Virus record (IMG/VR): IMGVR_UViG_3300032205_000001
Span: 44,218-108,217 of that record
Length of the DNA stretch: 64,000 nucleotides
From: a virus
Lineage: Duplodnaviria; Heunggongvirae; Uroviricota; Caudoviricetes
Direction: 5' to 3' (one strand)
The notes under the pieces are model-generated. The model ran no database searches and was not told the DNA's origin. It worked only from the letters and a program-made list of their open reading frames with translations. Position numbers and translations under genes: made by a program. Positions 1 to 51,457 of this stretch are shown here, in pieces. Position 1 is the stretch's first letter; every line of letters begins with the position of its first letter.

Positions 1-57
1 AACCGCCTCAGCCTGTGGTGCAGTTGGTTATCGAACCGCCTCAGCCTGTGATGCGGT
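1..57 (+). repeat. 22-nt direct repeat (AACCGCCTCAGCCTGTGgTGC / ...GaTGC), 33-nt period
   Basis: Encodes an EPPQPV peptide repeat at the start of ORF 15..458. Confidence 0.5.
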
Positions 58-458: not shown

Positions 459-467
459 AGCGGCAGC

Positions 468-503
468 GCGCAAGCGCTTGCGTTGGAAAACTCAAGAGTT
501 TTC
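468..503. terminator. tandem hairpins between convergent genes: CGCAAGCGCTTGCG palindrome plus GGAAAACTC-AA-GAGTTTTC
   Basis: Perfect inverted repeats. Confidence 0.55.
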
Positions 504-591
504 TAAACAACAGAAGGTCCCGCCGACCTGAGCCTGCTGAACACAACGACGGAATTGCCTTTGTGAGCCCAAGCCGACGGGACATCCCATC

Positions 592-1002
592 CTAGCTACA
601 ATCGATGGGGGTGTACATTCCAGACGAGTAGCGCCCGGACTGATACTCCACGCTCTTGCGCGGCATGGCCACGAGCCGCTCTTCACCGAATTCGCCTTGC
701 ATCTTGCCGATTTCGATGACGTAACCGTAGTCATAGGACTGCGGAGCGCGCGTGCGCAGAAGCTTGTAATCCGCCGTGATGTCTTCGATGAGGTGCGGCG
801 GGTCACCCACAAGCGAGCGCAGATACTGCTCTGCCACGAAGAATTTGGCGCTCGTCGTCGATAGAGGCGGCGAGATGTAGAACCCATCACGACGAGCAAG
901 GTCGCCAGCTTCATCGTAGAACCGACGAGCCGCATCGCTGCTACGTTCGATGAGAGCATCGAATTGCTTGATTGGAATCTTGAATTGGACGATTCGGAAC
1001 AT
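592..1002 (-). CDS. hypothetical protein (136 aa)
   Basis: ORF track; start codon abuts the divergent cassette at 1000-1073; convergent with the 15..458 gene over shared hairpins. Confidence 0.5.
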   Translation of the reverse strand: MFRIVQFKIPIKQFDALIERSSDAARRFYDEAGDLARRDGFYISPPLSTTSAKFFVAEQYLRSLVGDPPHLIEDITADYKLLRTRAPQSYDYGYVIEIGKMQGEFGEERLVAMPRKSVEYQSGRYSSGMYTPIDCS

Positions 1003-1073
1003 GCTCTTACTACCGTCGGCGTGGCCAACGATTTCACGAAAGATTTGAGGTTTGCGGTTGTAGTGAGAGCATG
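1000..1073. promoter_or_regulatory. divergent promoter/operator cassette, copy 1 (CAT-N6-ACTAC...TTCACGAAAGA...GGTTGTAGT-N6-ATG)
   Basis: Shared architecture with copies at 2158, 2806, 3667, 5143, 7234, 8574 and 9478. Confidence 0.5.
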
Positions 1074-1328
1074 CCCAGAACCCTCAAAGAACTTGCGAAG
1101 GAAGCGCTCGATGTCCAGGATGCCTGCAACCTATCGGGTGTGGCCCATGGGTTTGCTCGGGCGATGACAGACCTCGGCGAGCACACGAACGGCACGGACG
1201 CACGCAACAAGCATCCCGTGGCCGTGCTTTGGGCGGATAAGATCGCTCATCTCACGGGCACGCAAGACCTCGGCAACGACGTCACGACGAAGGCCTACTC
1301 GTGGGCCTACGATCTGCTCAAGACCTAG
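1071..1328 (+). CDS. hypothetical protein (85 aa)
   Basis: ATG 6 nt after the GGTTGTAGT cassette half-site; ends before the palindrome at 1393-1413. Confidence 0.45.
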   Translation: MPRTLKELAKEALDVQDACNLSGVAHGFARAMTDLGEHTNGTDARNKHPVAVLWADKIAHLTGTQDLGNDVTTKAYSWAYDLLKT

Positions 1329-1392
1329 ACTTGTGGTCGCCGTGTCTTCGGCGGGCAATCGGGCCACAGAGGTGACCCGGCCACTCATATAA

Positions 1393-1413
1393 GAGAAAAC
1401 TCCAGAGTTTTCC
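1393..1413. terminator. GAGAAAACTC-CA-GAGTTTTCC palindromic hairpin
   Basis: Between convergent genes 1071..1328 (+) and 1543..2160 (-). Confidence 0.55.
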
Positions 1414-1542
1414 GTTTAGGTTCCTGAGGAGTGGTAGCCCTCCTCAGGTTCAAATCGCTGGCCACCCAACGGCGTGTGATGTGCAGCGCTTTGCTATGCA
1501 CACGCTCACAGAGCCCGGTTTTATCACCCGGGGCACGTCAAC

Positions 1543-2160
1543 TTAGGCGGCGTCGCCTTTCGACCACTGGCGAAGCTCGCCGAGCCGCTCACGCTTGCGA
1601 ACCGTCCAACCTTCGAGGATACGGCACGACTCCTCGCAGGCCGAGATGATAGCCAAATCCTTTTCGGACTTGCCCCGGCCGCTCATCTTCGGCAGGTCGC
1701 AGAAGTGAACCGGGGGCCAGTAGCCGAGCGCGATGAATGCCTCGGCGATTTCCCACGAAAGGTCCATCCCTCCGCCCGTGAGTGCGATTCCGGTTTCGCC
1801 GTCGTCGAACTCGACCACGCACAGAGGCAAGTGCGCCAGCTTGAGCGCAGCCTCGGCGCAGTCGTCGATACGCACGGGGTACCAGTACGACATCATCGGG
1901 CCCTCGGGATACATCGTACCCCGGCACGTGTTCGGGACTTCGAGCGTTTCGCCGTCGATTTCCTCTTCGACGTCCGCGAGCATGTCACGGCACTCGCACT
2001 CACCGAAGGACGAGCACACCACGGTGCGCTTGCACTCGGGGCACTCGAACGCTTCGAACACCTGGTAACCGTCGCAGTTCTCGCCGATGCGCTCCTGCCA
2101 GTCGATGGTCTGGGGCTTCATCTCCACCGCATCACAGTTCAGTCGGTCGATGTTCAGCAT
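1543..2160 (-). CDS. Cys-rich hypothetical protein (205 aa, begins MLNIDRL)
   Basis: The track ORF 1543..2250 is trimmed to the ATG at 2160 that abuts the cassette (CAT-N6-ACTACAA); CxxC pairs present. Confidence 0.5.
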   Translation of the reverse strand: MLNIDRLNCDAVEMKPQTIDWQERIGENCDGYQVFEAFECPECKRTVVCSSFGECECRDMLADVEEEIDGETLEVPNTCRGTMYPEGPMMSYWYPVRIDDCAEAALKLAHLPLCVVEFDDGETGIALTGGGMDLSWEIAEAFIALGYWPPVHFCDLPKMSGRGKSEKDLAIISACEESCRILEGWTVRKRERLGELRQWSKGDAA

Positions 2161-2222
2161 GGTTTGACTACAATCCTCGTTGGTGCGTTTTTCAGAAAAA
2201 CAGAGGTTCGATGGTTGTAGTG
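2158..2222. promoter_or_regulatory. divergent cassette, copy 2; the right half drives the tRNA-like element
   Basis: GACTACAAtcc...TTTTCAGAAAAA...GGTTGTAGTG. Confidence 0.5.
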
Positions 2223-2264
2223 TGGGTGTGGCTTGGTGCGTACGAGGCATCAGCCCTCTCGAAG

Positions 2265-2332
2265 TAGTAGACGCTGGCTGGCGTTGAATCTGACAGAGGC
2301 CTCGTATCAGGGTTCGATTCCCTGCTTACTAT
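2265..2332 (+). ncRNA. tRNA-like non-coding element (acceptor-like stem plus perfect T-arm CAGGG-TTCGATT-CCCTG); not a canonical tRNA
   Basis: GGTTCGATTCC T-loop with a 5-bp T-stem; a 6/7-bp acceptor-like pairing TAGTAGA/CTTACTA; no anticodon or D arm can be folded; driven by the right half of the cassette at 2158-2222 and ended by the palindrome at 2334-2352. Confidence 0.25.
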
Positions 2333-2333
2333 A

Positions 2334-2352
2334 GAAAACTCAAGAGTTTTCC
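2334..2352. terminator. GAAAACTC-AA-GAGTTTTCC palindromic hairpin
   Basis: Ends the tRNA-like transcript and the 3' end of the leftward gene 2362..2808. Confidence 0.5.
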
Positions 2353-2361
2353 ACTAAGGGC

Positions 2362-2808
2362 TCACGCCCACGCGATGAGCCTGTCGCCAGCCTTCTCGCA
2401 GACCTTGAGCATCTGCTCGGTGATTTGCCGAAGGCGGCCATCGGGGCGGCCACCCATGATCACGCGCGGACCCGTGGGGCCCTTGAAGTCCTCGAACGAA
2501 GTACCGGCATCATGGTTGCGCGCTTCGTTCCAGAGGCGACGACGGCACAGAGCCGCTAGCTCGGTGGCCTTGATTTGGCCCATGGGCGCAGAGACGAGCC
2601 CAACCCAACGCATCCAATCACCTGCATTCTGACTGTGCAGGTTGACCGAAACGTCCGTGCAGTTCTCGCACGTGAACATCTCGGGCGAGTCCTCACCCTT
2701 TTCCGAAGCGATGTCACAGGCATCGCACCAGCGTTCGCTGCAATCACAGCGATACACGTAGCGCGTTCCACCCTCGACCTCGACTGCGATGTAGAAGTCC
2801 ACGCTCAT
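2362..2808 (-). CDS. Cys-rich hypothetical protein (148 aa)
   Basis: The long track ORF 2362..3396 is trimmed to Met197 (ATG at 2808) directly adjoining the cassette at 2806-2880. Confidence 0.5.
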   Translation of the reverse strand: MSVDFYIAVEVEGGTRYVYRCDCSERWCDACDIASEKGEDSPEMFTCENCTDVSVNLHSQNAGDWMRWVGLVSAPMGQIKATELAALCRRRLWNEARNHDAGTSFEDFKGPTGPRVIMGGRPDGRLRQITEQMLKVCEKAGDRLIAWA

Positions 2809-2880
2809 GCTCGTACTACAAGGAACGAATCTCGGATTTTCAGAGAAAATGCAGGCTGCCTCGGTTGTAGTGCAGGCATG
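2806..2880. promoter_or_regulatory. divergent cassette, copy 3
   Basis: CAT-gctcgt-ACTACAAgg...TTTTCAGAGAAAA...GGTTGTAGT-gcaggc-ATG. Confidence 0.55.
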
Positions 2881-3441
2881 GGCGTCTACATCTACACGAT
2901 GCGCACGAAGACCCTGCCACTCAACGTGCTTGGCACGGGAACGGTCCAGGCGAACCTCTATAGCTTCGCCTACCGTTACACGAGCTATTGGAAGGGAGAC
3001 AGGGGATACAACAGCTACAACCTGATGTGCAGCAACGCTCATCGTCATGCACACGATGCGTTCGCCAAAGATCGGAGCGGCTACGTCATCGTGGGTGACC
3101 TCGACGATGGGAAGCTGAAGCTGGAAGGGCACAACGTCTACAGGAACGTGCGGGAAGCCATCTGGACGGATACAGAGCGCTTTCCCGGTGAACTCGTGGG
3201 ATGGGTCGGGGTGCAAGGAAAAGGCTTGTACCTCGCAAAGCAGACGCCATGGCGCAACGTGCAGACGCTCGAAGGAGACACGTGGATTGCCAAGCGCCAG
3301 CGCAGTGTGATGGATGCGCTCGGACAGGTGACGATCGAGGAGATCGTCGGCGATGATGTTCGGCGTGTGTGCCATTGCTGCGAGAACAATCCACACACCG
3401 AAGGCTGCCCATACAAAGAGTATCTCAACCTGCGGGCGTAG
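2878..3441 (+). CDS. hypothetical protein (187 aa)
   Basis: In frame with track ORF 2575..3441; ATG at 2878 lies 6 nt after GGTTGTAGT; TAG stop, then hairpin 3431-3448 and palindrome 3451-3469. Confidence 0.5.
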   Translation: MGVYIYTMRTKTLPLNVLGTGTVQANLYSFAYRYTSYWKGDRGYNSYNLMCSNAHRHAHDAFAKDRSGYVIVGDLDDGKLKLEGHNVYRNVREAIWTDTERFPGELVGWVGVQGKGLYLAKQTPWRNVQTLEGDTWIAKRQRSVMDALGQVTIEEIVGDDVRRVCHCCENNPHTEGCPYKEYLNLRA

Positions 3442-3469
3442 CCCCGCAAGGGAAAACTCAAGAGTTTTC
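3431..3469. terminator. TGCGGGC-gta-GCCCCGCA hairpin plus GGAAAACTC-AA-GAGTTTTC
   Basis: Between convergent genes. Confidence 0.55.
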
Positions 3470-3480
3470 TACTGCATGCC

Positions 3481-3669
3481 CTAGCGGGCGGTGAACTCAC
3501 CACTCGCTACTTCGGGTGCTGTACGGATGACAGGCTCCGGCATCTCGCCGTCCCATCCCAGATACAGCTGCGCCGCAATCACCAACATGCGAGGCTGCTC
3601 GGTAACCGGCTGCTCGTATGCCAGAAGGTTGGCAACGCGGCGAACATCCTGATTGAATGTGTCCAGCAT
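3481..3669 (-). CDS. hypothetical protein (62 aa)
   Basis: ORF track; start abuts the cassette at 3667-3741. Confidence 0.35.
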   Translation of the reverse strand: MLDTFNQDVRRVANLLAYEQPVTEQPRMLVIAAQLYLGWDGEMPEPVIRTAPEVASGEFTAR

Positions 3670-3741
3670 GGTTCTACTACCGAAGAGAATCCTCTGAATT
3701 TCAGTGAAAAGCCAACGCCCCTAACCTGTAGTGAAGGCATG
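3667..3741. promoter_or_regulatory. divergent cassette, copy 4
   Basis: ACTACcg...AATTTCAGTGAAAA...TGTAGTgaaggcATG. Confidence 0.5.
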
Positions 3742-4158
3742 AGCAACGAAACCCAACAGCCGAAACTGATCAACATCCTGTCCATCGACGCGTGGGCCGA
3801 CGGTGAGGACGGTTGGAACTGGAACATGTGGACGAAGGTCGGCACGTGCGACGTGTCCCTCTGCGACAAGCCCGAGGCTGAAATCCTCGCGTTTCTCGTG
3901 GCGTGGGATTTCCTCACGGAGAAAGCGCTGACCTCGTGCTACGTCGAAGATGATCAGTACAACATGGTCATCTGCGACAAGGAAACGCATCAGCCCCTTT
4001 TCGCGTTGGAGTACGGCGCACTTCAGGATGTGCCCGATAACCAGCCTCCTCCGGGCTCGTGGGCTGATGTGGCTCGGATGATGGCAGCTACCAGCGACGA
4101 TCCCTCGATCGACTGGGATGCGTGGAAAGATGAGATGAAAGAATCTGACCTGGATTAA
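3739..4158 (+). CDS. acidic hypothetical protein (139 aa)
   Basis: ORF track; cassette-driven; followed by a 10-bp hairpin at 4164-4186. Confidence 0.5.
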   Translation: MSNETQQPKLINILSIDAWADGEDGWNWNMWTKVGTCDVSLCDKPEAEILAFLVAWDFLTEKALTSCYVEDDQYNMVICDKETHQPLFALEYGALQDVPDNQPPPGSWADVARMMAATSDDPSIDWDAWKDEMKESDLD

Positions 4159-4163
4159 CCAAG

Positions 4164-4245
4164 GAATCTCACAGCTTGTGAGATTCTTACGATTGCCCGT
4201 GAGTTTTCCTTGGTGCGCCGACATATAAGCCGGTCGCCGGCTAAA
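4164..4245. terminator. 10-bp hairpin GAATCTCACA-gct-TGTGAGATTC, an orphan GAGTTTTCC half-site (4201-4209) and a GCCGG-tcg-CCGGC hairpin
   Basis: Between convergent genes 3739..4158 and 4251..4817. Confidence 0.5.
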
Positions 4246-4250
4246 ACCCG

Positions 4251-4817
4251 CTAGCCTCGGTTGGCCCACGCCGCTTCGAGCGCCTCGTGATACTTCGGGT
4301 CGACGTGCTCTTTCATGCCCTGAAGGTCATCGCCGAAGAAACCAAAGCACGAATCTTCGTGCTCCTCTTCGTGGACCTTCGAGCCACACTCGCCGCAATC
4401 GTGCGTTGACTCGATGGTGAATCCCCACACGTTGCCCGTGAGGAAATCATCGTAGATTTTTACTTCGCTCTTGAGCACAGCCTCGGCAGTCTCGCGAATC
4501 TTCTTTGTGATGCGCTTGACCATGTAGCACTTACGAATCGCCTCGGGCGTGGCCACGATGTAGCCGACCTGCCCTGAATCCCACGGGCAACCAAACGAGC
4601 CCGTGCTCATGGTGATGCCCGAGTGATCGTAGAGATACAGAGGGAGCACGATGCTGCCCTTGGGCGCATTCTCCTTCAGCCACTCTTGCGGGTCTTGCTT
4701 GGGCTGCACGTCACCGAGGTTATAGCGACGGTGCCAGCAAGCCATCACGCCGAGGTTATCCCATTCGCGTGGTGAGCCAGGGTCGGTGTCTTGAATGACT
4801 TTGACGATGATGCTCAT
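4251..4817 (-). CDS. hypothetical protein (188 aa)
   Basis: ORF track; start abuts a half cassette at 4815-4860. Confidence 0.5.
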   Translation of the reverse strand: MSIIVKVIQDTDPGSPREWDNLGVMACWHRRYNLGDVQPKQDPQEWLKENAPKGSIVLPLYLYDHSGITMSTGSFGCPWDSGQVGYIVATPEAIRKCYMVKRITKKIRETAEAVLKSEVKIYDDFLTGNVWGFTIESTHDCGECGSKVHEEEHEDSCFGFFGDDLQGMKEHVDPKYHEALEAAWANRG

Positions 4818-4860
4818 GGTCGTACTACAACTAGCCGAGGTTTGTTTTTCAGGATTTCTG
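4815..4860 (-). promoter_or_regulatory. half cassette (left half plus centre) upstream of gene 4251..4817
   Basis: CAT-ggtcgt-ACTACAAct...TTTTTCAGGATTTC; no right half, palindrome 4879-4899 follows. Confidence 0.45.
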
Positions 4861-4878
4861 AGGTTTGCTGCACACGAA

Positions 4879-4899
4879 TAGAAAACTCAAGAGTTTTCC
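4879..4899. terminator. GAAAACTC-AA-GAGTTTTCC hairpin downstream of the hicA-like gene
   Basis: Perfect inverted repeat. Confidence 0.5.
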
Positions 4900-4935
4900 G
4901 TTCTCTGGACTGGGGCTGCTGAGGACCCCTAGCCT

Positions 4936-5145
4936 CTAGGCAGCGAGGATTGTCTTCAGCATGCGCCGTGCGACGTTACGGCCCATGCGCTTGCCCCCTG
5001 GGATGGTGATCGTCGGCGAGCCCGGTTTGCTCATGACGATGTGAGAACCCTTGCCCCGACCGGGGAGCACTTCGTAGCCGTTCTCTTTTGCGAGATCGAC
5101 TAGATCCCTCGGTGTTGCCGTGTGGACTGAGATCGTTTTGCTCAT
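4936..5145 (-). CDS. HicA-like (YcfA family) putative mRNA-interferase toxin domain protein (69 aa)
   Basis: KGSH..PG..TIP..G..R.ILK pattern typical of the HicA fold; the start abuts the cassette at 5143-5216; no HicB-like partner seen. Confidence 0.45.
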   Translation of the reverse strand: MSKTISVHTATPRDLVDLAKENGYEVLPGRGKGSHIVMSKPGSPTITIPGGKRMGRNVARRMLKTILAA

Positions 5146-5216
5146 GCTCGCACTACAAGATCTCAGCTCGTCGTTTTCATGAAAAACAAAGCGTGCGAGG
5201 TTGTAGTCGAGACATG
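5143..5216. promoter_or_regulatory. divergent cassette, copy 6 (hicA-like gene on the left, 266-aa gene on the right)
   Basis: CAT-gctcgc-ACTACAAga...TTTTCATGAAAAA...GGTTGTAGT-cgagac-ATG. Confidence 0.55.
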
Positions 5217-6014
5217 CTGAATCGAACCATTGCCGGAATGCTCAAAGAGAACACGGGCTCGCATTTCCTCGATTCGGGGAGCGCGTACGGTCGCAATCAC
5301 GAGCGTAACCAGAAACGCACGTTCGAGAATGAGCCGGAGGCAACGGTCGATTTCAAGTATGGGGTTGAGGTGACGATCAACGTCTACCATTTCCTCAAGG
5401 ATCGGCTCACGCTTTCCACGGCGATGGATCGCAAGTTTCAGCGGTTCTGTAACCGCAAGGAGCACGCGAGCGAGACCTACTTTTCTCTCATCGATACGTG
5501 GCTCGCTACGTTCGATGAGGTTAGCGGCCTGTACGGCGAAGGTTCGCCGATGACCGTCAATACCTACAACGGCGAAGATCTGCTTTCCCAGGTCATTCAG
5601 TACACGCTGTTTCGCATCGATGACACCGATTACGTGGCTCTCATGATCCACGGTGGGTGCGATGTCCGTGGTGGCTACACTCGCCCGCGCATCTTCGAAG
5701 TGAACGGCGATGCTGCATGCATGTTCGATAACGCTCGTGCGTCGATCTACTGCACGCGCACGGGCAAGGTTCCCGGCCTGTTTGGTGAGATGGATGCGTG
5801 CGGTGCGTACTGGGACACGGAAAACGGCCACTCGTGGCACCGTGAAGGCAACTACGCCAGCGCTGGCGGTACGCAGCTTCAGGACTACGATCGCACCGAA
5901 GAGGAAAAGGGCGAGACCTGGGAAGCGGGCAAGCTTCACGTCCTGAAGGATGGATCGGCGCTTTGTCCGTGCTGCGGTGCGGCATTGGGCGTGAGCCACA
6001 TGGGCGGATACTGA
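5214..6014 (+). CDS. hypothetical protein (266 aa, begins MLNRTIAG, C-terminal CPCCG)
   Basis: In frame with track ORF 5088..6014 (Met43); ATG lies 6 nt after GGTTGTAGT of the cassette. Confidence 0.5.
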   Translation: MLNRTIAGMLKENTGSHFLDSGSAYGRNHERNQKRTFENEPEATVDFKYGVEVTINVYHFLKDRLTLSTAMDRKFQRFCNRKEHASETYFSLIDTWLATFDEVSGLYGEGSPMTVNTYNGEDLLSQVIQYTLFRIDDTDYVALMIHGGCDVRGGYTRPRIFEVNGDAACMFDNARASIYCTRTGKVPGLFGEMDACGAYWDTENGHSWHREGNYASAGGTQLQDYDRTEEEKGETWEAGKLHVLKDGSALCPCCGAALGVSHMGGY

Positions 6015-6093
6015 AACCTCCAAAGTTCCGAGGATTGTAGTTCTCGGATATTCCTTGGAATTTCAGAAAAGCGCAGCATCGGTGCGTATTTAG

Positions 6094-6131
6094 TTGACTT
6101 TGACAATGCGCTCTGATAGGTTGTGTACATG
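6094..6131 (+). promoter_or_regulatory. sigma-70-type leaderless promoter of the sigma-factor gene (TTGACT-N17-TAGGTT-N6-ATG) with an overlapping TTGACAAT box
   Basis: Same hexamer-N6-start geometry as seven other sites in the window. Confidence 0.45.
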
Positions 6132-6650
6132 CTGAATACGACGCACCAAGAAATCCTCGGGCTCCGCAACGAAATCCGCCGTGTGGTGGCGATGGTGTTG
6201 CGCACGTCGCGCTACTTCGCCGATGACCACATCGAAGAGTGCATGTCCGACGTCATGCTCCAGGCTTTCGACTACGGTGCGCGTACGTTCGATCCGAGCA
6301 AAGGCTCGGCGAAGTCTCATTTCACCACGTTCGCTAAGCACCGTGCCAAGAATTGGCTCAACCGGGCGTGCCGTCGGTTCGAAGTAGCCGACGAGTCTAC
6401 TACCGAGGACGGGGAGACTGTTTCTCACACGGCGAGCGTGCCGGCCGATGGAAACCCGGCGCTATCCCTCATGGCATCGCAAGAGCGTGCCCGGGTGCTC
6501 GCCGCAGTCGAGACCCTAGAAGACCGTGAGCGTGCGCTCGTACATGCGTTCCTTCGGCTGGGCTCGTGGATGCTCGCCGCAAAGGAAATCGGCGTTTCGC
6601 CGGCTACGGCTAGCCGAATGAAGGCCGATATCGTGGCGAAGCTTCGCTAG
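6129..6650 (+). CDS. ECF-like sigma-70 family sigma factor (region 2 + region 4 HTH)
   Basis: HFTTFAKHRAKNWLNR (region 2.x) and ERALVHAFLRLGSWMLAAKEIGVSPATASRMKADIVAKLR (region 4); TTGACT-N17-TAGGTT-N6-ATG promoter at 6094-6131. Confidence 0.7.
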   Translation: MLNTTHQEILGLRNEIRRVVAMVLRTSRYFADDHIEECMSDVMLQAFDYGARTFDPSKGSAKSHFTTFAKHRAKNWLNRACRRFEVADESTTEDGETVSHTASVPADGNPALSLMASQERARVLAAVETLEDRERALVHAFLRLGSWMLAAKEIGVSPATASRMKADIVAKLR

Positions 6651-6658
6651 GTAGGTCG

Positions 6659-6729
6659 GGCGCGCAAGCGCTTGCGCCGCTCACGGCCAACAGAAAACTC
6701 TTATTGAATGGGTCTAAGGGGAGTTTTCC
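6659..6729. terminator. GCGCAAGCGCTTGCGC palindrome plus split GAAAACTC-N20-GAGTTTTCC
   Basis: Between convergent genes 6129..6650 and 6739..7236. Confidence 0.5.
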
Positions 6730-6738
6730 CTTAGGGGC

Positions 6739-7236
6739 TCACAGCCCGAACGCTGCATCATCGAAGGTGCATTGCGAGCACTCGATGTCCGGGATTTCGA
6801 TCTCGAAGTCCCCGTGATCATCGAACCACGAGACACCGTGGCCCATGGCCTGCATTGCGAGGTAGTGGCCGAATTCCTCGGCGTCGAACCCATCCCGATC
6901 ACACTTCGCGCACTTGCTCTTGTGCTCGACGTCGGCTTGCTCGGCACGCTCGGCGAGCACATACACACTGACCTTGTTTGCCGCTTCCAGAGCGGCCCAC
7001 AGTTCGCCAGCGAGCGCGAAAGCAGCCGGCGGGGTCTGGGGTGCGTAGTCACTCCAATTCTCGCCAGCGCCCGGCCTAGGAAGGCTCAAGCGAGCCTTAC
7101 GCTCTGCCTTGGTTAGCTCGTTATCGGTCGAATGACCCTCTTCGACGAAATCGGCGTAAGCCGAAACGAAGAAAGCCTTCGCCGCAGCGAGTAGGAATTC
7201 ATCCTTGAAGATCGAGCTAGAGCCGATGTTCGTCAT
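6739..7236 (-). CDS. hypothetical protein (165 aa, acidic, CxxC pairs)
   Basis: Track ORF 6739..7527 trimmed to Met98 (ATG 7236) abutting the cassette at 7234-7308. Confidence 0.45.
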   Translation of the reverse strand: MTNIGSSSIFKDEFLLAAAKAFFVSAYADFVEEGHSTDNELTKAERKARLSLPRPGAGENWSDYAPQTPPAAFALAGELWAALEAANKVSVYVLAERAEQADVEHKSKCAKCDRDGFDAEEFGHYLAMQAMGHGVSWFDDHGDFEIEIPDIECSQCTFDDAAFGL

Positions 7237-7308
7237 GTTCGTACTACAACCATCGTGCGATTCGTTTTCTCTGAAAATTAGAGGATTGATGCTTGTAGTA
7301 CTGACATG
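7234..7308. promoter_or_regulatory. divergent cassette, copy 8
   Basis: CAT-gttcgt-ACTACAAcc...TTTTCTCTGAAAAT...TTGTAGTAC-tgac-ATG. Confidence 0.55.
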
Positions 7309-7599
7309 AGCAAAGCTGACGAACACATCCAGTACCATCTCACCATCCCCACGGGTCACATCCGACTCTTCACGATCCTCAGCGGCCTCAAGCTGGAGAT
7401 CAAGTTCCCGGGCATGCGCATGACCCGCAAGGCCCCGAAGTGCAGCACGATCCTCCGCCAGGAGTTCGGCCTCAGCGGCAAGCCGCAAAAGCTGTACGAT
7501 CAGTTCCTGGGGCTGCTCGTGAAGCATGGCGTGCCGCTCCCCGGCGAATACGTCAACCCCACGCCGCCGGCACCGACGACCGAGCCCGAGGTGAACTGA
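7306..7599 (+). CDS. hypothetical protein (97 aa)
   Basis: ORF track; cassette-driven; ends before the palindrome at 7631-7657. Confidence 0.4.
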   Translation: MSKADEHIQYHLTIPTGHIRLFTILSGLKLEIKFPGMRMTRKAPKCSTILRQEFGLSGKPQKLYDQFLGLLVKHGVPLPGEYVNPTPPAPTTEPEVN

Positions 7600-7630
7600 G
7601 AGCCCGGCGCTCCGGCGCCACCGGCCAACA

Positions 7631-7672
7631 GAAAACTCTTATGGCCTAGAGTTTTCCTCTATTGGCCTTGCG
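7631..7672. terminator. GAAAACTCT-tatggcct-AGAGTTTTCC hairpin plus GGCC-ttgc-GGCC
   Basis: Between convergent genes; GGCCTTGCGGCC recurs at 11357-11368. Confidence 0.5.
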
Positions 7673-7681
7673 GCCTGCTCC

Positions 7682-7864
7682 TTACTCGTCCCAGTAGTGG
7701 CGCGTTGCCGCGTCGTACTCCTGGTCAAGCTCGTGCTCGTCGAGGAGTTCAGCCTGCACGTTGCGAGCGCCACCCCTGGGCTGATTGCGGTGACGCATGT
7801 AACCGGCGTTGCGGTGCTGTGCCGCTACTGCAACCCCGGACCGTTTGTTGATGTATTTCGCCAT
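7682..7864 (-). CDS. hypothetical protein (60 aa)
   Basis: ORF track; start abuts a half cassette at 7862-7905. Confidence 0.35.
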   Translation of the reverse strand: MAKYINKRSGVAVAAQHRNAGYMRHRNQPRGGARNVQAELLDEHELDQEYDAATRHYWDE

Positions 7865-7905
7865 GGTGACACTACAACCGTGCGCATTGGGTTTTTCAGT
7901 CTACC
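7862..7905 (-). promoter_or_regulatory. half cassette upstream of gene 7682..7864
   Basis: CAT-ggtgac-ACTACAAcc...TTTTTCAGTCTACC. Confidence 0.4.
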
Positions 7906-8257
7906 CGAGCGGATTGGTTTTGCCACCACAACACGGGCCACCAATGGGCCAGTAGTCGCACGTCCAGCCTAGCCGCTCGTGGTCGATGGATGAATGGTGG
8001 CAGTGACCGTGCCCATTGGCTTGGTTTGCCTCGCATTCCTCGTGGTGCGCCTTCAACTTGCGCCGATGGATGATTTCGCAATAGCGATGGTTCACGTACT
8101 GAAGCATCGCAGCGAGGATCCGATCACCCTTTGTGATGGTGCCCGTCCATTGCTTGATCTCCAATTCGCGCAATAGCTCTTCGTACTCTTCGGCTGTGAG
8201 ACAGATCGAAGAGTCGAAGTAGAGCCGGATCAATGGTTCAACTGGCTTATCCGCCAT
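7901..8257 (-). CDS. His/Cys-rich hypothetical protein (118 aa)
   Basis: Track ORF 7901..8443 trimmed to Met63 (MADKPVEP); 11-nt overlap with the upstream gene. Confidence 0.4.
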   Translation of the reverse strand: MADKPVEPLIRLYFDSSICLTAEEYEELLRELEIKQWTGTITKGDRILAAMLQYVNHRYCEIIHRRKLKAHHEECEANQANGHGHCHHSSIDHERLGWTCDYWPIGGPCCGGKTNPLG

Positions 8258-8576
8258 TGGACACCGGCCCGAGCACAGCAAAGCGGTGACGGCTACCACC
8301 GAGGTTGGAGCGGCAGCACGAGCACATGCGCCAGCTGAATTCGTTGATACCGTCGCCGGTTTCGGAGTCGAAGTCCGGCACGAGGTTGGGCCCGAGGCGT
8401 GCGAGACCAGCATCGATCTCAGCAGCGCGCTCCTTGGCGCCATCCCTCAGCTCGCCACGGCCCGGGGACTCACCCTTGCCATAGTGCTCGTCGATACCCG
8501 AGTAATCGCCGTTGACGGCAACGAACAGGCAATCCTGGCACAGTTGGAGGTCATCCATCACGACTTGCATCGCCAT
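8247..8576 (-). CDS. hypothetical protein (109 aa)
   Basis: Track ORF 8247..8843 trimmed to Met90; CAT-N6-ACTACAA at the cassette 8574-8648. Confidence 0.4.
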   Translation of the reverse strand: MAMQVVMDDLQLCQDCLFVAVNGDYSGIDEHYGKGESPGRGELRDGAKERAAEIDAGLARLGPNLVPDFDSETGDGINEFSWRMCSCCRSNLGGSRHRFAVLGPVSNGG

Positions 8577-8648
8577 GCCTGTACTACAACCGAGCAATCT
8601 CCAATTTTCAGAGAAAACGCGGACCGGGTTGGTTGTAGTCGAGGCATG
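8574..8648. promoter_or_regulatory. divergent cassette, copy 10
   Basis: CAT-gcctgt-ACTACAAcc...TTTTCAGAGAAAA...GGTTGTAGT-cgaggc-ATG. Confidence 0.55.
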
Positions 8649-8831
8649 CTGCACACATTCATCATCCTGTTTCTCAACACCCCAGGTCCGCACGTTCCGC
8701 ACAAGGTCGATCACAAGGCCGACATGCGCGTGAGCGAGCACATCATCGACTCGTCCAAGAATGGCGAGAACTCGCGCAAGCGGCAGCTCCACAGCATGTG
8801 GCGCGACGAGTACAAGCTGGCGCGGAAGTAA
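8646..8831 (+). CDS. hypothetical protein (61 aa, begins MLHTFII)
   Basis: In frame with track ORF 8286..8831 (Met121); ATG lies 6 nt after GGTTGTAGT. Confidence 0.35.
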   Translation: MLHTFIILFLNTPGPHVPHKVDHKADMRVSEHIIDSSKNGENSRKRQLHSMWRDEYKLARK

Positions 8832-8835
8832 TCCC

Positions 8836-9036
8836 ATGGCCAAGCGTAGCGATGCTCAAATCCTTCGGGACCTTCAGGGTGTGGAAAACGGGCTGAGTCC
8901 AGAGAACCTCTGGTGTGATGGGGAAGCGAGCCCGGCTTACGTGCGCAAGCGTGGCGCAGAACTGAGGCGCCAGCGTGCAGCTCTGATCAAAGAGCTAGGA
9001 CGTGAGCCCACTACATCCGAGCTGTATGGGTTTTGA
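8836..9036 (+). CDS. hypothetical protein (66 aa)
   Basis: In frame with track ORF 8761..9036 (Met26); followed by hairpin 9039-9058 and palindrome 9092-9111. Confidence 0.35.
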   Translation: MAKRSDAQILRDLQGVENGLSPENLWCDGEASPAYVRKRGAELRRQRAALIKELGREPTTSELYGF

Positions 9037-9038
9037 TC

Positions 9039-9111
9039 CCTGAGCTGAGTCGCTCAGGTAGATCTCGCACCGTGCTGTGAAGCCCTGTGACGGAAAACTC
9101 TAAGAGTTTTC
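9039..9111. terminator. CCTGAGC-tgagt-c-GCTCAGG hairpin plus GGAAAACTC-TAA-GAGTTTTC
   Basis: Between convergent genes 8836..9036 and 9202..9480. Confidence 0.5.
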
Positions 9112-9201
9112 TAAATACAATAGCTGATTGGATCTGGTGATCCTTCCGGCCTTGGTAGGCGGCTCAGCTGGCAGCTCTATATACAGATCGTGAGCCACCC
9201 A

Positions 9202-9480
9202 CTACGGTGCCGTCGCCACACCTTCGCTGCCATCGTCATAGGTGATTTTGTCGTACTCGCCGCACACCTTGAACTTGTCGAGAAACATCAGCTCGCCACG
9301 GTCCATCACCCATGGCTTGTAGGTGATCTCGGTGTCGAGTGGAACGTCGATCGACTCGGTGATCGCATCCAGATGGAGCGTATCGCCGTTCACGGTCAGC
9401 TTGCGCGCGAGGTGTCCCGTGTAAGCGCAGCGAATCTCGCAGCTCTTGTGCCCTGCCATCAGCGTGCGGAAGGTCATCAT
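9202..9480 (-). CDS. hypothetical protein (92 aa)
   Basis: ORF track; start abuts the cassette at 9478-9551. Confidence 0.45.
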   Translation of the reverse strand: MMTFRTLMAGHKSCEIRCAYTGHLARKLTVNGDTLHLDAITESIDVPLDTEITYKPWVMDRGELMFLDKFKVCGEYDKITYDDGSEGVATAP

Positions 9481-9551
9481 GGTCTGACTACAACCATCGA
9501 GCCCGTCGTTTTCACGAAAATCCCGAGGTTCGCGCTTGTAGTACGGACATG
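9478..9551. promoter_or_regulatory. divergent cassette, copy 11
   Basis: CAT-ggtctg-ACTACAAcc...TTTTCACGAAAAT...TTGTAGTAC-ggac-ATG. Confidence 0.55.
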
Positions 9552-9746
9552 CTGCAATTCGTTCTCACCATCAACGTCGAGGGGCTGTCCTACGCTGACG
9601 TGGCGAGTGCGCTACGTGCCACGGCTTCCCATCTCGCAGCTGGCCGCTACAGTGCGCTCATCGCCGAAGGCGGCGACTCTGGCCGCATCATGGCCGAGGA
9701 CAAAGAGACTCGCATTGGTGGCTGGCACATCACCGAGGACAAGTAG
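9549..9746 (+). CDS. hypothetical protein (65 aa, begins MLQFVLT)
   Basis: ORF track; cassette-driven. Confidence 0.4.
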   Translation: MLQFVLTINVEGLSYADVASALRATASHLAAGRYSALIAEGGDSGRIMAEDKETRIGGWHITEDK

Positions 9747-9748
9747 CC

Positions 9749-9928
9749 ATGTATCGCACGTTCAAGCGCAGCTGTACGGACTGGCAAAGCTTCGCCAGCG
9801 CTCGCAAGATGACGGTTGATACCCATCTCAGCTACGCGCAAGCGCTCGAAGCCTGCGAGCAATTCAACAACAATCGGACCCCGCGCCAGATTCGCAAGGG
9901 GACTAAGCTCGAATTCGAGCGCATGTAA
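9749..9928 (+). CDS. hypothetical protein (59 aa; below the ORF-track size cut-off)
   Basis: Manual ORF MYRTFKRSCTDWQSF...EFERM; starts 3 nt after the previous stop; followed by a 12-bp long-range hairpin and the perfect palindrome at 10012-10029. Confidence 0.35.
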   Translation: MYRTFKRSCTDWQSFASARKMTVDTHLSYAQALEACEQFNNNRTPRQIRKGTKLEFERM

Positions 9929-9933
9929 GTTAC

Positions 9934-10068
9934 GCCAGGCACGGGGCACGAACACACTGGAACGTCGATCGTGCGGCGCCCAGTGATGCCCGTGCCTGGC
10001 TCTATATAACGGAAAACTCTAGAGTTTTCTTTCTACTAATCAACTACTAGTTCCTACTAAATTAGTAG
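9934..10068. terminator. 12-bp long-range hairpin (GCCAGGCACGGG ... CCCGTGCCTGGC), perfect 18-nt palindrome GAAAACTCTAGAGTTTTC (10012-10029) and CTACTAA-a-TTAGTAG
   Basis: Between convergent genes 9749..9928 and 10073..10522. Confidence 0.55.
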
Positions 10069-10072
10069 CAGC

Positions 10073-10522
10073 CTACGAGTACAGCACCGTGATCGATGCG
10101 GCGTAGGGGTTCGGGCTGAACTCCAGCCGGAGGCTCTTGATCGAGCAGTGCTCCAGCTTCTGCAGGCGAGCGATAAGCCGCTCGGCGGCATGCTGCGCCA
10201 GTAGCTCGCACGAGAGCGTAGTGGGCTCGCTGGCGATGCGATCCATGAACACCCCGAGCATGGCCTGGTCGAAGAGAAAGCCCCGGGAATCGAGCTTAGG
10301 CTCGCACTCCACGCTGACGTTCCAGCGGACGGGAATTGCCTTGCGGCCACCGTCGACCCGAACGAGCTGATCAGCCGGACCACAGTGATTGGTGCCCGGG
10401 GTCACGATGAAATTCGACAGCCCAGCGCGCTGGATCGTCATCGTGCGGAGGGAGAGGGAGATCGTGCGCACGGGCGCAGCAACCGGCTTAACAACCTTCG
10501 TCGTCGTGTGTTGGTTCAGCAT
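10073..10522 (-). CDS. hypothetical protein (149 aa, begins MLNQHTT)
   Basis: ORF track; preceded on the minus strand by TTGACA-N17-TAAAAC-N8-ATG (10523-10559). Confidence 0.5.
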   Translation of the reverse strand: MLNQHTTTKVVKPVAAPVRTISLSLRTMTIQRAGLSNFIVTPGTNHCGPADQLVRVDGGRKAIPVRWNVSVECEPKLDSRGFLFDQAMLGVFMDRIASEPTTLSCELLAQHAAERLIARLQKLEHCSIKSLRLEFSPNPYAASITVLYS

Positions 10523-10559
10523 GACAACCGTTTTATCAGGTCATGCGGCGATTGTCAAG
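10523..10559 (-). promoter_or_regulatory. leaderless promoter CCTTGACAATCG-N17-TAAAAC-N8-ATG
   Basis: Reverse complement read of 10523-10562. Confidence 0.5.
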
Positions 10560-10566
10560 GTATCAT

Positions 10567-10791
10567 TTACTTGGAATCCCGAGGTTTCCTGATCATCCGT
10601 TTGGCGCTTGCGAGCCCGCACTCGAAGCATCGCCGGCATGGGTAGAGACTACAGATCGGCAGCACGGGAATTTCAGCCTGGAAAACTCTTCCACGTCGAT
10701 CTTCAGATCGGTAGTTAAACCAGGTGATCTCGAAGAGCGCCATCCACTCGGGATCGATCTTTAGCTCAAGCTTCTGTGAGGAGTTTTCCAT
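10567..10791 (-). CDS. possible small protein (74 aa)
   Basis: ORF track; its start overlaps a GAGTTTTCC half-site; sits inside a split palindrome (10689-10789); weak. Confidence 0.2.
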   Translation of the reverse strand: MENSSQKLELKIDPEWMALFEITWFNYRSEDRRGRVFQAEIPVLPICSLYPCRRCFECGLASAKRMIRKPRDSK

Positions 10792-10799
10792 AACGGGCC

Positions 10800-11225
10800 C
10801 TAGGCCGCGATGCCCTCGGCCGGTTCGTCCACGTCAGAGAGTGAGGTTCCGCTTTGCGCGGCAAGCCACACCTCGCGGGAGAGCTGTCCCTCGTCGATGA
10901 TCTCCCAGTAACGATAGCCCGATTCGGCTTCCCACTCCACGGCGATCATGCGCCCGGTGTAGCTCGACGGGGGCTCCGGGCGATACGCGTGGCTCGCTTC
11001 CCAGGCCGCACGATGCTCAGCCTCTTGAGCCCAGAAACGGGCCTCCTCGCCGCACTCGTCGCACGTGACGAGCATGCAACAGCACGGCGCATCCATCCAA
11101 AACGGTTGTAGATCGACGTCCCGGCCATTGTCGACCACGAGCGAAGCCTTACGGGCTGCGATCTCTGCGAGATACAGCTTGTGACCGACGTAGCGGCGGA
11201 AGCGCTTTCCGAAGGTGCGAGCCAT
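10800..11225 (-). CDS. hypothetical protein (141 aa)
   Basis: ORF track; start abuts a half cassette at 11223-11268. Confidence 0.45.
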   Translation of the reverse strand: MARTFGKRFRRYVGHKLYLAEIAARKASLVVDNGRDVDLQPFWMDAPCCCMLVTCDECGEEARFWAQEAEHRAAWEASHAYRPEPPSSYTGRMIAVEWEAESGYRYWEIIDEGQLSREVWLAAQSGTSLSDVDEPAEGIAA

Positions 11226-11268
11226 GCCTGTACTACAAGCCAGGGAGAAACGTTTTTCAGGGATTCGA
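11223..11268 (-). promoter_or_regulatory. half cassette upstream of gene 10800..11225
   Basis: CAT-gcctgt-ACTACAAgcc...TTTTTCAGGGATTC. Confidence 0.4.
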
Positions 11269-11305
11269 AGGATTCACAGATCGTGATCACGCCACAGGGG
11301 AAGAA

Positions 11306-11368
11306 GAAAACTCTAGAGTTTTCCACTCCCCAAAGCGCGCAAGCGCTTGCCCCGTAGGGCCTTGCGGC
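11306..11368. terminator. GAAAACTCTAGAGTTTTCC palindrome, GCAAGCGCTTGC palindrome and GGCCTTGCGGCC, downstream of the leftward sigma gene
   Basis: Perfect inverted repeats. Confidence 0.55.
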
Positions 11369-11905
11369 CTAGGCCTCGTCGGCGAGATCCGCCACGATGG
11401 CTTTCATCCGGCGGGTTGCCGTGGCAGGCGACCATCCGACGAGCGCTCCGGCCTCGGTCTGTCCCATGCCGTCCAGCATGGCGCCCACGAACGTACGAGC
11501 GTCCGAGTCGAGCGTATCGAGCGCAGTGGCAAGCCAAGCCATCTCCGACCGACGCTCGACATCGAGGCGACCATCGGGGCCCACGAACGAACCACACTCG
11601 GCCACGTTCGTGCCGAGGGTATCGACGAGCATGCTCGTGTTCCCCTCGTCGTCGGAAGCTTCCGACACGTGGCCATTGTTGGCGCTCGCCTTGCGCCAGT
11701 TACGAGCGGTATTGCTGGCGATACGGAGCGCCCACGACTCGAACGAACCACGGGACTCGTCGAAGGTTTCGACGGCCGACAGGATGCGCACAACCGCATC
11801 CGACACGATGTCATCGGTGGCCGACGTGGGGCCAATGGCCCGCTCGACGGCGCGCGACATGGACTTGAGTAGCTTCGCGTTCAGTGCAGCGTTGATGTTC
11901 AGCAT
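11369..11905 (-). CDS. ECF-like sigma-70 family sigma factor (paralogue of 6129..6650)
   Basis: FESWALRIASNTARNWRK (region 2) and ARTFVGAMLDGMGQTEAGALVGWSPATATRRMKAIVADL (region 4); promoter TTGACA-N17-GATAGT-N6-ATG at 11906-11940 on the minus strand. Confidence 0.7.
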   Translation of the reverse strand: MLNINAALNAKLLKSMSRAVERAIGPTSATDDIVSDAVVRILSAVETFDESRGSFESWALRIASNTARNWRKASANNGHVSEASDDEGNTSMLVDTLGTNVAECGSFVGPDGRLDVERRSEMAWLATALDTLDSDARTFVGAMLDGMGQTEAGALVGWSPATATRRMKAIVADLADEA

Positions 11906-13544: not shown

Positions 13545-13650
13545 ACAATTCCTCCATCACCTATGAAAGTCCAACGTCAGACGCTTGTAGTACGACTATC
13601 ACTGCCAACCGGGACCCACTTCGGAATCCCTACCGGCACTGGAGTCAACG

Positions 13651-16930: not shown

Positions 16931-16965
16931 TGTAGGATGTCGGATAAAATCAAAAAATTCGAGGG
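16931..16965 (+). repeat. 33-bp dispersed repeat, copy 2
   Basis: See copy 1. Confidence 0.5.
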
Positions 16966-51451: not shown

Positions 51452-51457
51452 CTTGAT

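Follow-up and report, generated by a model that had tools for sequence, protein, structure and literature searches.

Why should small, unrelated genes that face either way along the genome of a phage begin and end with the same short sequences? This question is raised by the left end of a 64,000-nt stretch of DNA (referred to here as the window; positions 44,218 to 108,217 of IMG/VR record IMGVR_UViG_3300032205_000001), which is part of a 175 kb phage contig with related metagenomic contigs of up to 295 kb. An array of promoter motifs and palindromes is confined to the first ~12.5 kb of the window, and the layout of these motifs makes nearly every gene or short two-gene operon in this zone its own transcription unit. 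The original prediction, made from the DNA alone, described the repeats as promoters and 3′-end elements placed around unrelated small genes, and this description holds. We consider it probable, taking all of its parts together, that the array consists of leaderless cassettes read by a phage sigma factor, ended by palindromes, and recombining as modules. The region would then be a zone of accessory genes, of the delayed-early or ‘middle’ class, in an uncultivated giant phage. The host holoenzyme would transcribe the phage sigma genes from leaderless TTGACA-N17-TAnnnT promoters, and host core RNA polymerase with an extracytoplasmic function (ECF)-like phage sigma factor would read TGAAAA-N16-TGTAGT, producing messages that start at the A of the ATG. 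Each unit would end at an 8-mer, GAGTTTTC(C/T), acting as a 3′ boundary or terminator common to the converging neighbour, and recombination within these common ends would replace, invert or relocate single genes. The identity of the sigma factor and the way in which the palindrome ends transcripts are the least certain of these steps.

Promoter units and their geometry

TTGTAGT-N6-ATG is present in 16 exact copies in the window, all within positions 1000-11300. When one mismatch is allowed there are 23 copies against 1.7 expected, a number reached by none of 100 shuffles; comparison with shuffled sequence had been named as a check in the original prediction, and the motif is clearly enriched by it. 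Alignment of every TGTAGT in the window gives the common layout TGAAAA-N16-TGTAGT-N6-ATG, with a -10 hexamer TGTAGT at -12 to -7 from the A of the ATG, a spacer of 16 nt, and a -35 hexamer TGAAAA. When only TGAAAA and an ATG 28 nt further on are fixed, all 11 sites retrieved have TGTAGT at -12 to -7, and the 13-mer TTTTCAGAGAAAA at the centre of the units has six matches in the window where 0.9 are expected. Eleven related metagenomic loci contribute another 240-250 or so copies of the promoter, nearly all of them with the N16 spacer, N6 and ATG.

A relaxed scan finds 19 promoters in the zone, arranged as eight back-to-back pairs and three single promoters (Table 1). Eight full and four half cassettes had been counted previously; the eight pairs stand, but there are three clear half units. 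The fourth, near position 592, was rejected because it is a degenerate sequence (TGGAAT-N16-TGTAGC) at the wrong distance from an ATG. Two other sites, at 10639-10675 and 13564-13600, were missing from the earlier list, the second lying beyond its span.

The end of the -10 hexamer is 6 nt from the ATG in all 18 protein-coding units of the window, and the earlier suggestion that this invariant distance between half-site and start codon fits a leaderless geometry is well founded. The spacing leaves a Shine-Dalgarno sequence no room, and operon-internal genes do have one (e.g. AGGAGG ahead of the ATG at 14487). The cassette transcripts should be leaderless and start at the A of the ATG. Motifs, geometry and conservation are seen directly; start sites and transcript ends we infer from them, and this counts against the interpretation.

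The right half of one divergent unit is followed not by an ORF (open reading frame) but by a structured tRNA-like RNA. A covariance model constructed from four copies of the RNA finds it in eight genomes, and in related loci (designated by L numbers) it is located at 2834-2942 in L094, 4752-4859 in L117, 5179-5287 in L119, 5671-5781 in L121, 6303-6412 in L122 and 5092-5201 in L124. In the alignment 99.5% of the cells are paired and 14 pairs are changed on both sides, with none of 500 shuffles reaching this covariation; the RNA has a tRNA-type T-arm (GGTTCGAnTCC), a long composite arm, and a short covarying closing helix (GCGG/CCGC, GUUG/CGAC). The upstream flanks were read at base resolution in five of the eight genomes, and in four of these five the first base of the RNA is 6 nt after the -10 (8 nt in L124), which supports the predicted +1. 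ARAGORN finds no tRNA in the window or in a relative and does not call the tRNA-like RNA, and Rfam at gathering thresholds gives no match across the whole window. For the segment 2228-2333 itself the Rfam matches are all sub-threshold; among those of full length tRNA-Sec scores highest, with 13.5 bits where the cut-off is 47. The PolyA_pol family (PF01743) includes CCA-adding enzymes, and we note that L120 encodes a protein of this family at 12484.

In the divergent units the two opposite-strand -35 hexamers abut or overlap by 0-2 nt (e.g. TTTTCA/g/AGAAAA and TTTTCA/TGAAAA), and the promoter pairs form a symmetric spacer of 67-69 nt. The symmetry of the centre, TTTTC-NNN-GAAAA with inverted arms, is what led to the earlier proposal of an operator for a dimeric regulator controlling both genes. 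However, the half belonging to each gene is spaced exactly 16 nt from that gene's -10 and 28 nt from its ATG, the distance between halves varies by 0-2 nt while that from half to -10 is constant, and single promoters keep just one half, TTTTTCAG. The centre is accounted for as two abutting -35 hexamers, and because each half keeps its own -10 distance and single promoters keep one half, a dimeric operator is not needed; we regard it as very unlikely.

Sigma factors and promoter recognition

Two genes of the zone encode ECF-like sigma factors, which we refer to as sigma A and sigma B. Both match PHROG 1740, and in Pfam the Sigma70_r2 family scores 44.1 bits for sigma B (cut-off 24) and 22.6 bits, just below the cut-off, for sigma A. 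Among solved structures the family profiles of both best match ECF sigmas, and do so across both domains (RpoE 2q1z, E = 1.4e-5, for sigma A; CnrH 4cxf, E = 2.3e-7, for sigma B), and each has the two-domain arrangement (sigma-2 plus sigma-4) of an ECF sigma within the expected ~170-200 aa. The ECF-like nature of the two proteins is directly apparent, and which of them reads the promoters we infer from the comparisons that follow.

Promoters of the form TTGACA-N17-TAnnnT, 6-7 nt from the ATG, precede both sigma genes and two other genes in the window, and the sigma genes lie behind such host-type promoters in relatives too. Since these are canonical, the host primary sigma should have the usual consensus, and the cassettes would need another specificity factor. 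Promoters read by ECF sigmas combine an AAC-type -35 with a CGT-type -10 at a spacing of 16-17 nt, N16 being found for example in those of Bacillus subtilis sigma W. The sigma W promoter is composed of TGAAAC and CGTA, and ECF promoters more generally of a -35 tgaAAC with a -10 CGTA or CGTC (PMC5758882). The cassette motif TGAAAA-N16-TGTA is near to this but not identical, and the cassette promoter resembles the ECF class.

The -35 does not change among the relatives. The -10, although uniform inside any one genome, varies with lineage: most have TGTAGT, L119 has TGTATT in 22 of its 26 copies, L121 has ACTAGT in nine of 11, and L122 and L123 have TGTAGN. That two dozen promoters change their -10 in concert suggests that they co-evolve with a factor carried by the phage, and each phage has two or three ECF-like sigmas adjoining the array. 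In 43 clusters of sigma A homologues region 4.2 hardly varies, and this matches the invariant -35 of the cassette promoters. Most likely, the cassette promoters are read by host core RNA polymerase with one of the two phage ECF-like sigmas.

Several observations weigh against this assignment. When loop variants of sigma A are compared with the -10 sequences, the promoter is assigned to neither sigma. The usual loop is GSAKSHF, and the sigma A homologue P0013 (in L121) has a unique variant, GSVRTHF, which goes with the ACTAGT -10; yet P0002 (in L126) has the loop GSIKSHF and its -10 is still TGTAGT, and the sigma B paralogues vary as well. The contig of a further homologue, P0011, is too short to show a cassette promoter. 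The failure to link the -10 variants with any phage sigma lends something to a different explanation, in which the cassettes are read by a sigma of the host, ECF or primary, and the phage sigmas serve other (late) genes; the motif is itself ECF-like, and many bacteria own several ECF sigmas (PMC5758882). We nonetheless think this unlikely. The promoters of the sigma genes of the same phages show that the consensus of the host primary sigma differs from the cassette motif, the -10 shifts in concert per phage lineage while the -35 stays, and the ECF-like sigmas stand beside the array in each phage. Recognition by a phage-encoded sigma remains the better explanation.

No anti-sigma domain was found by Pfam among the ORFs of the zone, and the host-type promoters of the sigma genes depart from the autoregulated sigma gene with an anti-sigma partner that is typical of ECF systems. 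Autoregulation of sigma A from a TGTAGT at 6036 was considered and rejected, as the spacing is 18 nt instead of 16 and the site is within a hairpin (6027-6048).

The segment 11900-12700 of the window, adjoining sigma B, looks like an early control region. It has TTGACAAT/ATTGTCAA boxes in both orientations at 11932, 12009, 12339, 12551, 12649 and 12665, repeated CCTATTGG/CCAATAGG motifs at 12480-12640, and several host-type promoters, one of which (12346-12318, minus strand) is antisense into the ORF at 12044-12307. Another recurring sequence, ATGCTGAAY, is present at seven sites in the window against 1.06 expected, and six of the seven are start codons of predicted leaderless genes (2152-2160, 5214-5222, 6129-6137, 10514-10522, 11897-11905 and 12044-12052), including four of five genes with host-type promoters. 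The proteins therefore begin Met-Leu-Asn, and the sequence may be a start-site or leaderless-translation signal. An exact 17-mer, GTAGGATGTCGGATAAA, at 15109-15125 and 16932-16948 and part of a 32-nt repeat, lies just 5′ of two plus-strand genes and may be part of another promoter class.

Palindromes at the ends of units

The 8-mer GAGTTTTC(C/T) is conserved at the 3′ ends of units, mostly as a palindrome GGAAAACTC..GAGTTTTCC that is common to two converging units. The window has 12 of these palindromes and one half-site, all in the first 12.5 kb; all of its GGAAAACTC arms are in the first 16.4 kb and all exact 8-mer arms at or before 12.5 kb. Among the convergent junctions of the window, L117 and L119, the 8-mer is present in 32 of 32 and both arms in 24 of 32, and 12 loci together have 111 intergenic arm pairs and about 57 lone arms. 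Where units follow one another on the same strand, the sense half GAGTTTTCC comes after a gene-specific GC hairpin and 11-13 nt ahead of the next -35, forming the composite GAGTTTTCC-N11-13-TGAAAA-N16-TGTAGT. These positions argue strongly for a role as a transcript end or insulator. In 185,579 bacterial and archaeal genomes the palindrome has seven single matches, which is chance level; it is therefore a phage element, and a host feature such as an uptake sequence or a repetitive extragenic palindromic (REP) element was ruled out.

The original prediction described the palindrome as a terminator hairpin. Its position agrees with this, and from its placement it likely functions as a terminator, but the mechanism is doubtful for the compact copies. 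Arm spacing in 121 pairs from 15 loci is 2 nt in 66, 3 nt in 23 and 9-111 nt in 32, and 40 of the 89 short copies form a perfect 18-bp palindrome around a central CTAG. The long-insert copies conform to the definition of an intrinsic terminator as a GC-rich hairpin and U tract (e.g. L120 7000-7050, -20.6 kcal/mol), and their inserts are often a conserved GC hairpin, GCGCAAGCGCTTGCGC, giving an A-tract/hairpin/U-tract layout. The compact copies depart from that definition, folding weakly (-5 to -6.2 kcal/mol, z = -1.3 to -1.9) and having no U tail, and of the elements listed in Table 1 a generic terminator scan reports only the half-site at 4201, where a hairpin (4186-4203) is followed by TTTTCC. 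This is one of several points that weigh against a hairpin terminator. Lone arms are sense-oriented in only 31 of 55 cases by rough gene calls, the 9-mer sits in the hairpin loop in some copies, and the bases that flank the arms are mostly non-complementary (A..C in 50, G..C in 41, G..T in 22 and A..T in 6; counted over the 121 pairs as the base preceding GAAAACTC with that following GAGTTTTC). Pairwise covariation of the flanking bases was ruled out, A..C and G..T being dominant.

Every convergent junction examined is closed by the A/T element, whose compact palindrome nevertheless has none of the features of an intrinsic terminator and is therefore a concrete candidate for a non-canonical termination or 3′-end signal. 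We tentatively suggest that GAGUUUUCC and the palindromic doublet may form a sequence-specific, factor-dependent transcript-end signal (for termination or for 3′-end formation) that is read by a conserved phage or host protein and does not act through hairpin strength. It is possible, and here too we would put the case with reserve, that GGAAAACTC/GAGTTTTCC is instead a protein-recognition site such as a DNA roadblock, an insulator, a regulator site, or an RNA 3′-end processing or stability signal. The 8-mer is identical in L006 (51% GC) and L125 (48% GC), phages that share almost nothing else, and such invariance, the perfect CTAG-centred palindromes, the weak hairpin with no U tail, the non-complementary flanking bases, and the lone and everted arms in the early control region are all consistent with a protein site. 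However, an arm spacing of 2 to 111 nt is too variable for a rigid dimer, long inserts are often GC hairpins that generate the terminator-like layout, only the sense half follows the GC hairpin in same-strand tandem units, and no candidate binding protein was identified. A transcript-end function at the palindrome is the reading that we retain.

Some further features of the palindrome and its surroundings can be noted. Usually one strand reads GAGTTTTCC and the other GAGTTTTCT, an asymmetry of the ends that hints at polarity. Two short minus-strand ORFs (starts at 10789-10791 and 12415-12417) begin ATGGAAAACTCC, so that the start codon adjoins a palindrome arm; this is probably coincidental, since several relatives have a longer form of the palindrome, ATGGAAAACTC..GAGTTTTCCAT. 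A second conserved palindrome, the GC hairpin GCGCAAGCGCTTGCG(C), is always between the stop codon and the A/T palindrome in the cassette zone; weaker copies are in the window at 25133, 38922, 54129 and 58048, and the hairpin is also in 14 related loci, including L006. This last is a distant giant phage (IMGVR_UViG_3300033407_000001, 199.6 kb); what it has in common with the relative L009 is the A/T palindrome and the GC hairpin, as well as ATTGTCAA boxes and a gene for an ATPase with a Walker-A motif. No TGAAAA/TGTAGT promoters were found in the 7.7 kb of L006 examined.

Modular exchange, gene content and known systems

The clearest instances of gene exchange are in the pair L117 and L118, which are 96.6% identical. 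In one unit, unrelated ORFs of similar size (MDKFAG... and MDALSL...) occupy the interval between palindrome and start codon, and the alignment picks up again exactly at the ATG and -10. In a second replacement a GAGTTTTCC half-site forms the boundary. Comparison of cargo genes between relatives had been called for in the original prediction, and these swaps, which are directly visible, are bounded exactly by promoter and palindrome. In IMG/VR one 197-kb contig shares the system, as do many metagenomic contigs of up to 295 kb, and a pattern scan of IMG/VR finds only one contig of the lineage with multiple promoter matches. The IMG/VR relative has homologues of 13 of 25 window proteins in shuffled order and orientation; for example, the genes at 2362 and 2878, which diverge in the window, run in tandem there. 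Six other relatives retain the approximate order of about 15 of the 25 cargo genes, with single units flipped (those at 4251, 7306, 7682 and 3481) or moved (2878) and several slots variable. Judging from these alignments, the modules are real and exchange happens at the shared ends. All units have the same 5′ and 3′ ends, and recombination would therefore swap single genes, with the array evolving as interchangeable modules. It counts against a purely accessory array that most cargo genes are conserved across relatives; turnover is therefore moderate, and the array is, by this comparison, a semi-conserved gene set.

The earlier likening of the array to an integron or moron array holds for its modularity, as seen in the ORF swaps, flips and moves, but the integron part is to be discarded. 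Integrons have an IntI tyrosine recombinase, an attI site, and promoterless co-oriented cassettes that end in attC. An integron-like array moved by a site-specific recombinase acting at the palindromes would account for palindromes with variable centres at unit boundaries and for an ORF replacement that stops at one. However, Pfam finds no recombinase or integrase among the 20 larger ORFs of the zone, the other boundary of the swap is a promoter or start codon and not a second palindrome, every unit has its own promoter, the units alternate between strands, and gene order is largely conserved. The array has none of the defining features of an integron, and we consider such an origin extremely improbable. 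Homologous exchange at shared ends is the explanation that we favour.

In the cargo, Pfam recognises only a HicA-like protein and the two Sigma70_r2 proteins, in agreement with the earlier note of no recognisable domains other than these, and PHROGs adds four families, all of unknown function; these matches speak neither for nor against the anti-defence role that the original prediction thought possible. The HicA-like gene is one gene away from sigma A in every relative covering the region; its product keeps the GSH motif, has no recognisable HicB partner, and could, speculatively, be a candidate RNA-binding or RNA-cleaving factor. The ORF at 5214-6014 is without a homologue in L117, L119 and L124, where the gene called at that position is shorter. 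The phage is uncultivated and isolate databases have no match to it: megablast of window positions 1-12000 against 50,697 phage records gives none, nor does tblastn of sigma B against isolate phages, and tblastn of one 472-aa protein against isolate phages gives a single weak match only. The sole hint at a host, and a weak one, is L132 (CAZPUJ010000278.1, 4570 bp), which has seven cassette promoters and five arms, is a fragment of a related phage, and is binned into an uncultured Planctomycetaceae metagenome-assembled genome. Elsewhere in the window, three adjacent minus-strand ORFs (50465-53795; 328, 455 and 321 aa) share DNA repeats of 70-74% identity and look like tandem paralogues; they have no Pfam or PHROG match.

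Table 1. Coordinates of promoters, 3′ elements, genes and the tRNA-like RNA in the window (promoters and transcription units are predicted).
Feature	Position	Strand	Remarks
GC hairpin GCGCAAGCGCTTGCG	468-483		between stop codon and A/T palindrome
Compact palindrome GGAAAACTC-aa-GAGTTTTCT	485-504		convergent junction
Cargo ORF, 136 aa	592-1002	-	no family match; conserved in 6 relatives
Divergent unit 1	1000-1073		left TGAAAT-N16-GGTAGT-N6-ATG; right CGAAAG-N16-TGTAGT-N6-ATG
Cargo ORF, 85 aa	1071-1328	+	
Compact palindrome	1394-1413		RNA fold -5.0 (+) / -6.2 (-) kcal/mol
Cargo ORF, 205 aa	1543-2160	-	starts ATGCTGAAC
Divergent unit 2	2158-2230		left to ORF 1543-2160; right half (2194-2230) to tRNA-like RNA, not ORF
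Structured tRNA-like RNA, 106 nt	2228-2333	+	starts at predicted +1 of unit 2 right half
Compact palindrome	2333-2352		between tRNA-like RNA and ORF 2362-2808
Cargo ORF, 148 aa	2362-2808	-	
Divergent unit 3	2806-2880		centre TTTTCAGAGAAAA
Cargo ORF, 187 aa	2878-3441	+	other position in L119 and L122-L124
Compact palindrome	3451-3470		sole structured element of 39-nt convergent gap 3442-3480
Cargo ORF, 62 aa	3481-3669	-	
Divergent unit 4	3667-3741		left -10 is GGTAGT
Cargo ORF, 139 aa	3739-4158	+	
Half-site GAGTTTTCC	4201-4209	+	after gene-specific hairpin, 3′ of ORF 3739-4158
Cargo ORF, 188 aa	4251-4817	-	phrog_6186 (function unknown); orientation flipped in L121, L122, R2
Single promoter of ORF 4251-4817	4815-4851	-	
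Compact palindrome	4880-4899		between two minus-strand units
HicA-like protein, 69 aa	4936-5145	-	
Divergent unit 5	5143-5216		between HicA-like gene and ORF 5214
Cargo ORF, 266 aa	5214-6014	+	phrog_11344 (function unknown)
Host-type leaderless promoter of sigma A	6094-6131	+	TTGACT-N17-TAGGTT-N6-ATG
Sigma A, ECF-like sigma factor, 173 aa	6129-6650	+	
GC hairpin GCGCAAGCGCTTGCG	6662-6677		3′ of sigma A
Palindrome with 20-nt insert	6692-6729		3′ of sigma A
Cargo ORF, 165 aa	6739-7236	-	
Divergent unit 6	7234-7308		
Cargo ORF, 97 aa	7306-7599	+	flipped in L117 and R2
Palindrome with 10-nt insert	7630-7657		-10.3 kcal/mol, z = -3.0
Cargo ORF, 60 aa	7682-7864	-	only in some relatives; flipped in L117 and R2
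Single promoter of ORF 7682-7864	7862-7898	-	adjoins stop codon of upstream gene, therefore an internal promoter
Second gene of two-gene operon, 118 aa	7901-8257	-	variable slot
Cargo ORF, 109 aa	8247-8576	-	phrog_3034 (function unknown)
Divergent unit 7	8574-8648		
Two-gene unit	8646-9036	+	61 aa (8646-8831), 66 aa (8836-9036)
Compact palindrome	9092-9112		3-nt centre
Cargo ORF, 92 aa	9202-9480	-	
Divergent unit 8	9478-9551		
Two-gene unit	9549-9928	+	65 aa (9549-9746), 59 aa (9749-9928); largely absent from relatives
Compact perfect palindrome GAAAACTCTAGAGTTTTC	10011-10030		
ORF, 149 aa	10073-10522	-	starts ATGCTGAAC; predicted transcription from host-type promoter
Host-type promoter of ORF 10073-10522	10520-10558	-	TTGACA-N17-TAAAAC-N7-ATG
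Atypical promoter-like site	10639-10675	-	TGAAAT-N16-TGTAGT, 8 nt to ATG of 23-codon ORF
Palindrome, arms 92 nt apart	10680-10789		3′ of ORF 10800-11225
Cargo ORF, 141 aa	10800-11225	-	
Single promoter of ORF 10800-11225	11223-11259	-	
Compact palindrome	11305-11324		between promoter 11223-11259 and 3′ end of sigma B
GC hairpin GCGCAAGCGCTTGCG, 1 mismatch	11337-11352		3′ of sigma B
Sigma B, ECF-like sigma factor, 178 aa	11369-11905	-	
Host-type leaderless promoter of sigma B	11903-11940	-	TTGACA-N17-GATAGT-N6-ATG
Host-type promoter of ORF 12044-12307	12009-12046	+	TTGACA-N17-TACCTT-N6-ATG
Palindrome with 34-nt insert	12364-12415		3′ of ORF 12044-12307; -20.9 kcal/mol, z = -4.2
Cassette-type promoter	13564-13600	+	TGAAAG-N16-TGTAGT, then ~50-nt leader, ATG ~13651

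In a phage group that otherwise defies annotation, the rigid grammar of the array permits confident calls of where genes start and which transcription units they form. The lineage also offers a natural series of sigma/promoter variants (TGTAGT, TGTATT, ACTAGT) for the study of ECF -10 recognition, and possibly orthogonal expression parts. If the interpretation is correct, the GAGUUUUCC signal, an orthogonal phage ECF sigma and leaderless starts would together constitute a self-contained, insulated ‘plug-and-play’ expression grammar that lets a phage lineage swap single genes freely.

Parts of this grammar have counterparts elsewhere. Morons, as defined by Hendrix, are reportedly single genes inserted in phage genomes with their own promoter and terminator, and the array is similar in that each gene is an autonomous transcription unit. 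Its units differ from morons in having promoters and terminators that are all alike and specific to the phage, in lacking a prophage context, and in that relatives have kept most of the genes. Where bacterial genes converge, bidirectional intrinsic terminators consist of an A-tract, hairpin and U-tract; the palindromes likewise lie between convergent genes, and their long copies have an A-tract, GC hairpin and U-tract, whereas the compact copies have no GC stem or U tail and it is the sequence itself that is conserved across lineages. Phage sigma cascades include those of SPO1 (gp28 and gp33/34), T4 (gp55) and phiEco32 (gp36), in which, as proposed here, a phage sigma redirects host RNA polymerase to phage promoters after an early host-dependent phase. 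The present class differs in comprising dozens of monocistronic, apparently leaderless units in divergent arrangement. With ECF (group IV) sigmas the two proteins share the two-domain form of ~175 aa, and the promoters share a -35 rich in GAAA(C/A), a -10 of (C/T)GTA, and a rigid 16-nt spacer. In contrast, the -35 of the array ends in A and not C, its -10 is TGTAGT, and the sigma genes are phage-encoded, behind host-type promoters, not autoregulated, and have no anti-sigma that we could see.

The closest described system is that of the promoter-early stem-loop (PeSL) cassettes in the hyperplastic regions of T4-type phages, where promoter and stem-loop motifs flank ORFans and mediate their replacement by recombination (Arbiol et al. 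2010, PMC2839356; Comeau et al. 2014, PMC4122927). Both systems have short conserved promoter and stem-loop motifs flanking small ORFan genes, indels and replacements that end in the motifs when close relatives are compared, and homologous recombination between motif copies as the inferred mechanism. The repetition typical of PeSL is evident here in the 19 promoters and 12 palindromes within 12.5 kb, and motif-bounded replacement in the L117/L118 swaps. Recombination between PeSL motifs also yields mini-circles. There are clear differences. The PeSL early promoter is strong and sigma-70-like, whereas TGAAAA-N16-TGTAGT is ECF-like and probably read by a phage sigma, with TTGACA/TAnnnT forming a separate class in the same genome. 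The messages are apparently leaderless and the promoters are fused back-to-back, and the 3′ element is a separate, sequence-invariant A/T palindrome, unlike the GC stem-loop of PeSL, which is joined to the promoter. The array would thus be a PeSL-like system with new parts. The PeSL principle, that uniform ends make small genes interchangeable, would then reach beyond the T4-like phages, built in this lineage around a phage sigma of the ECF type, with fused bidirectional promoters, messages that lack a leader and an end signal of invariant sequence.

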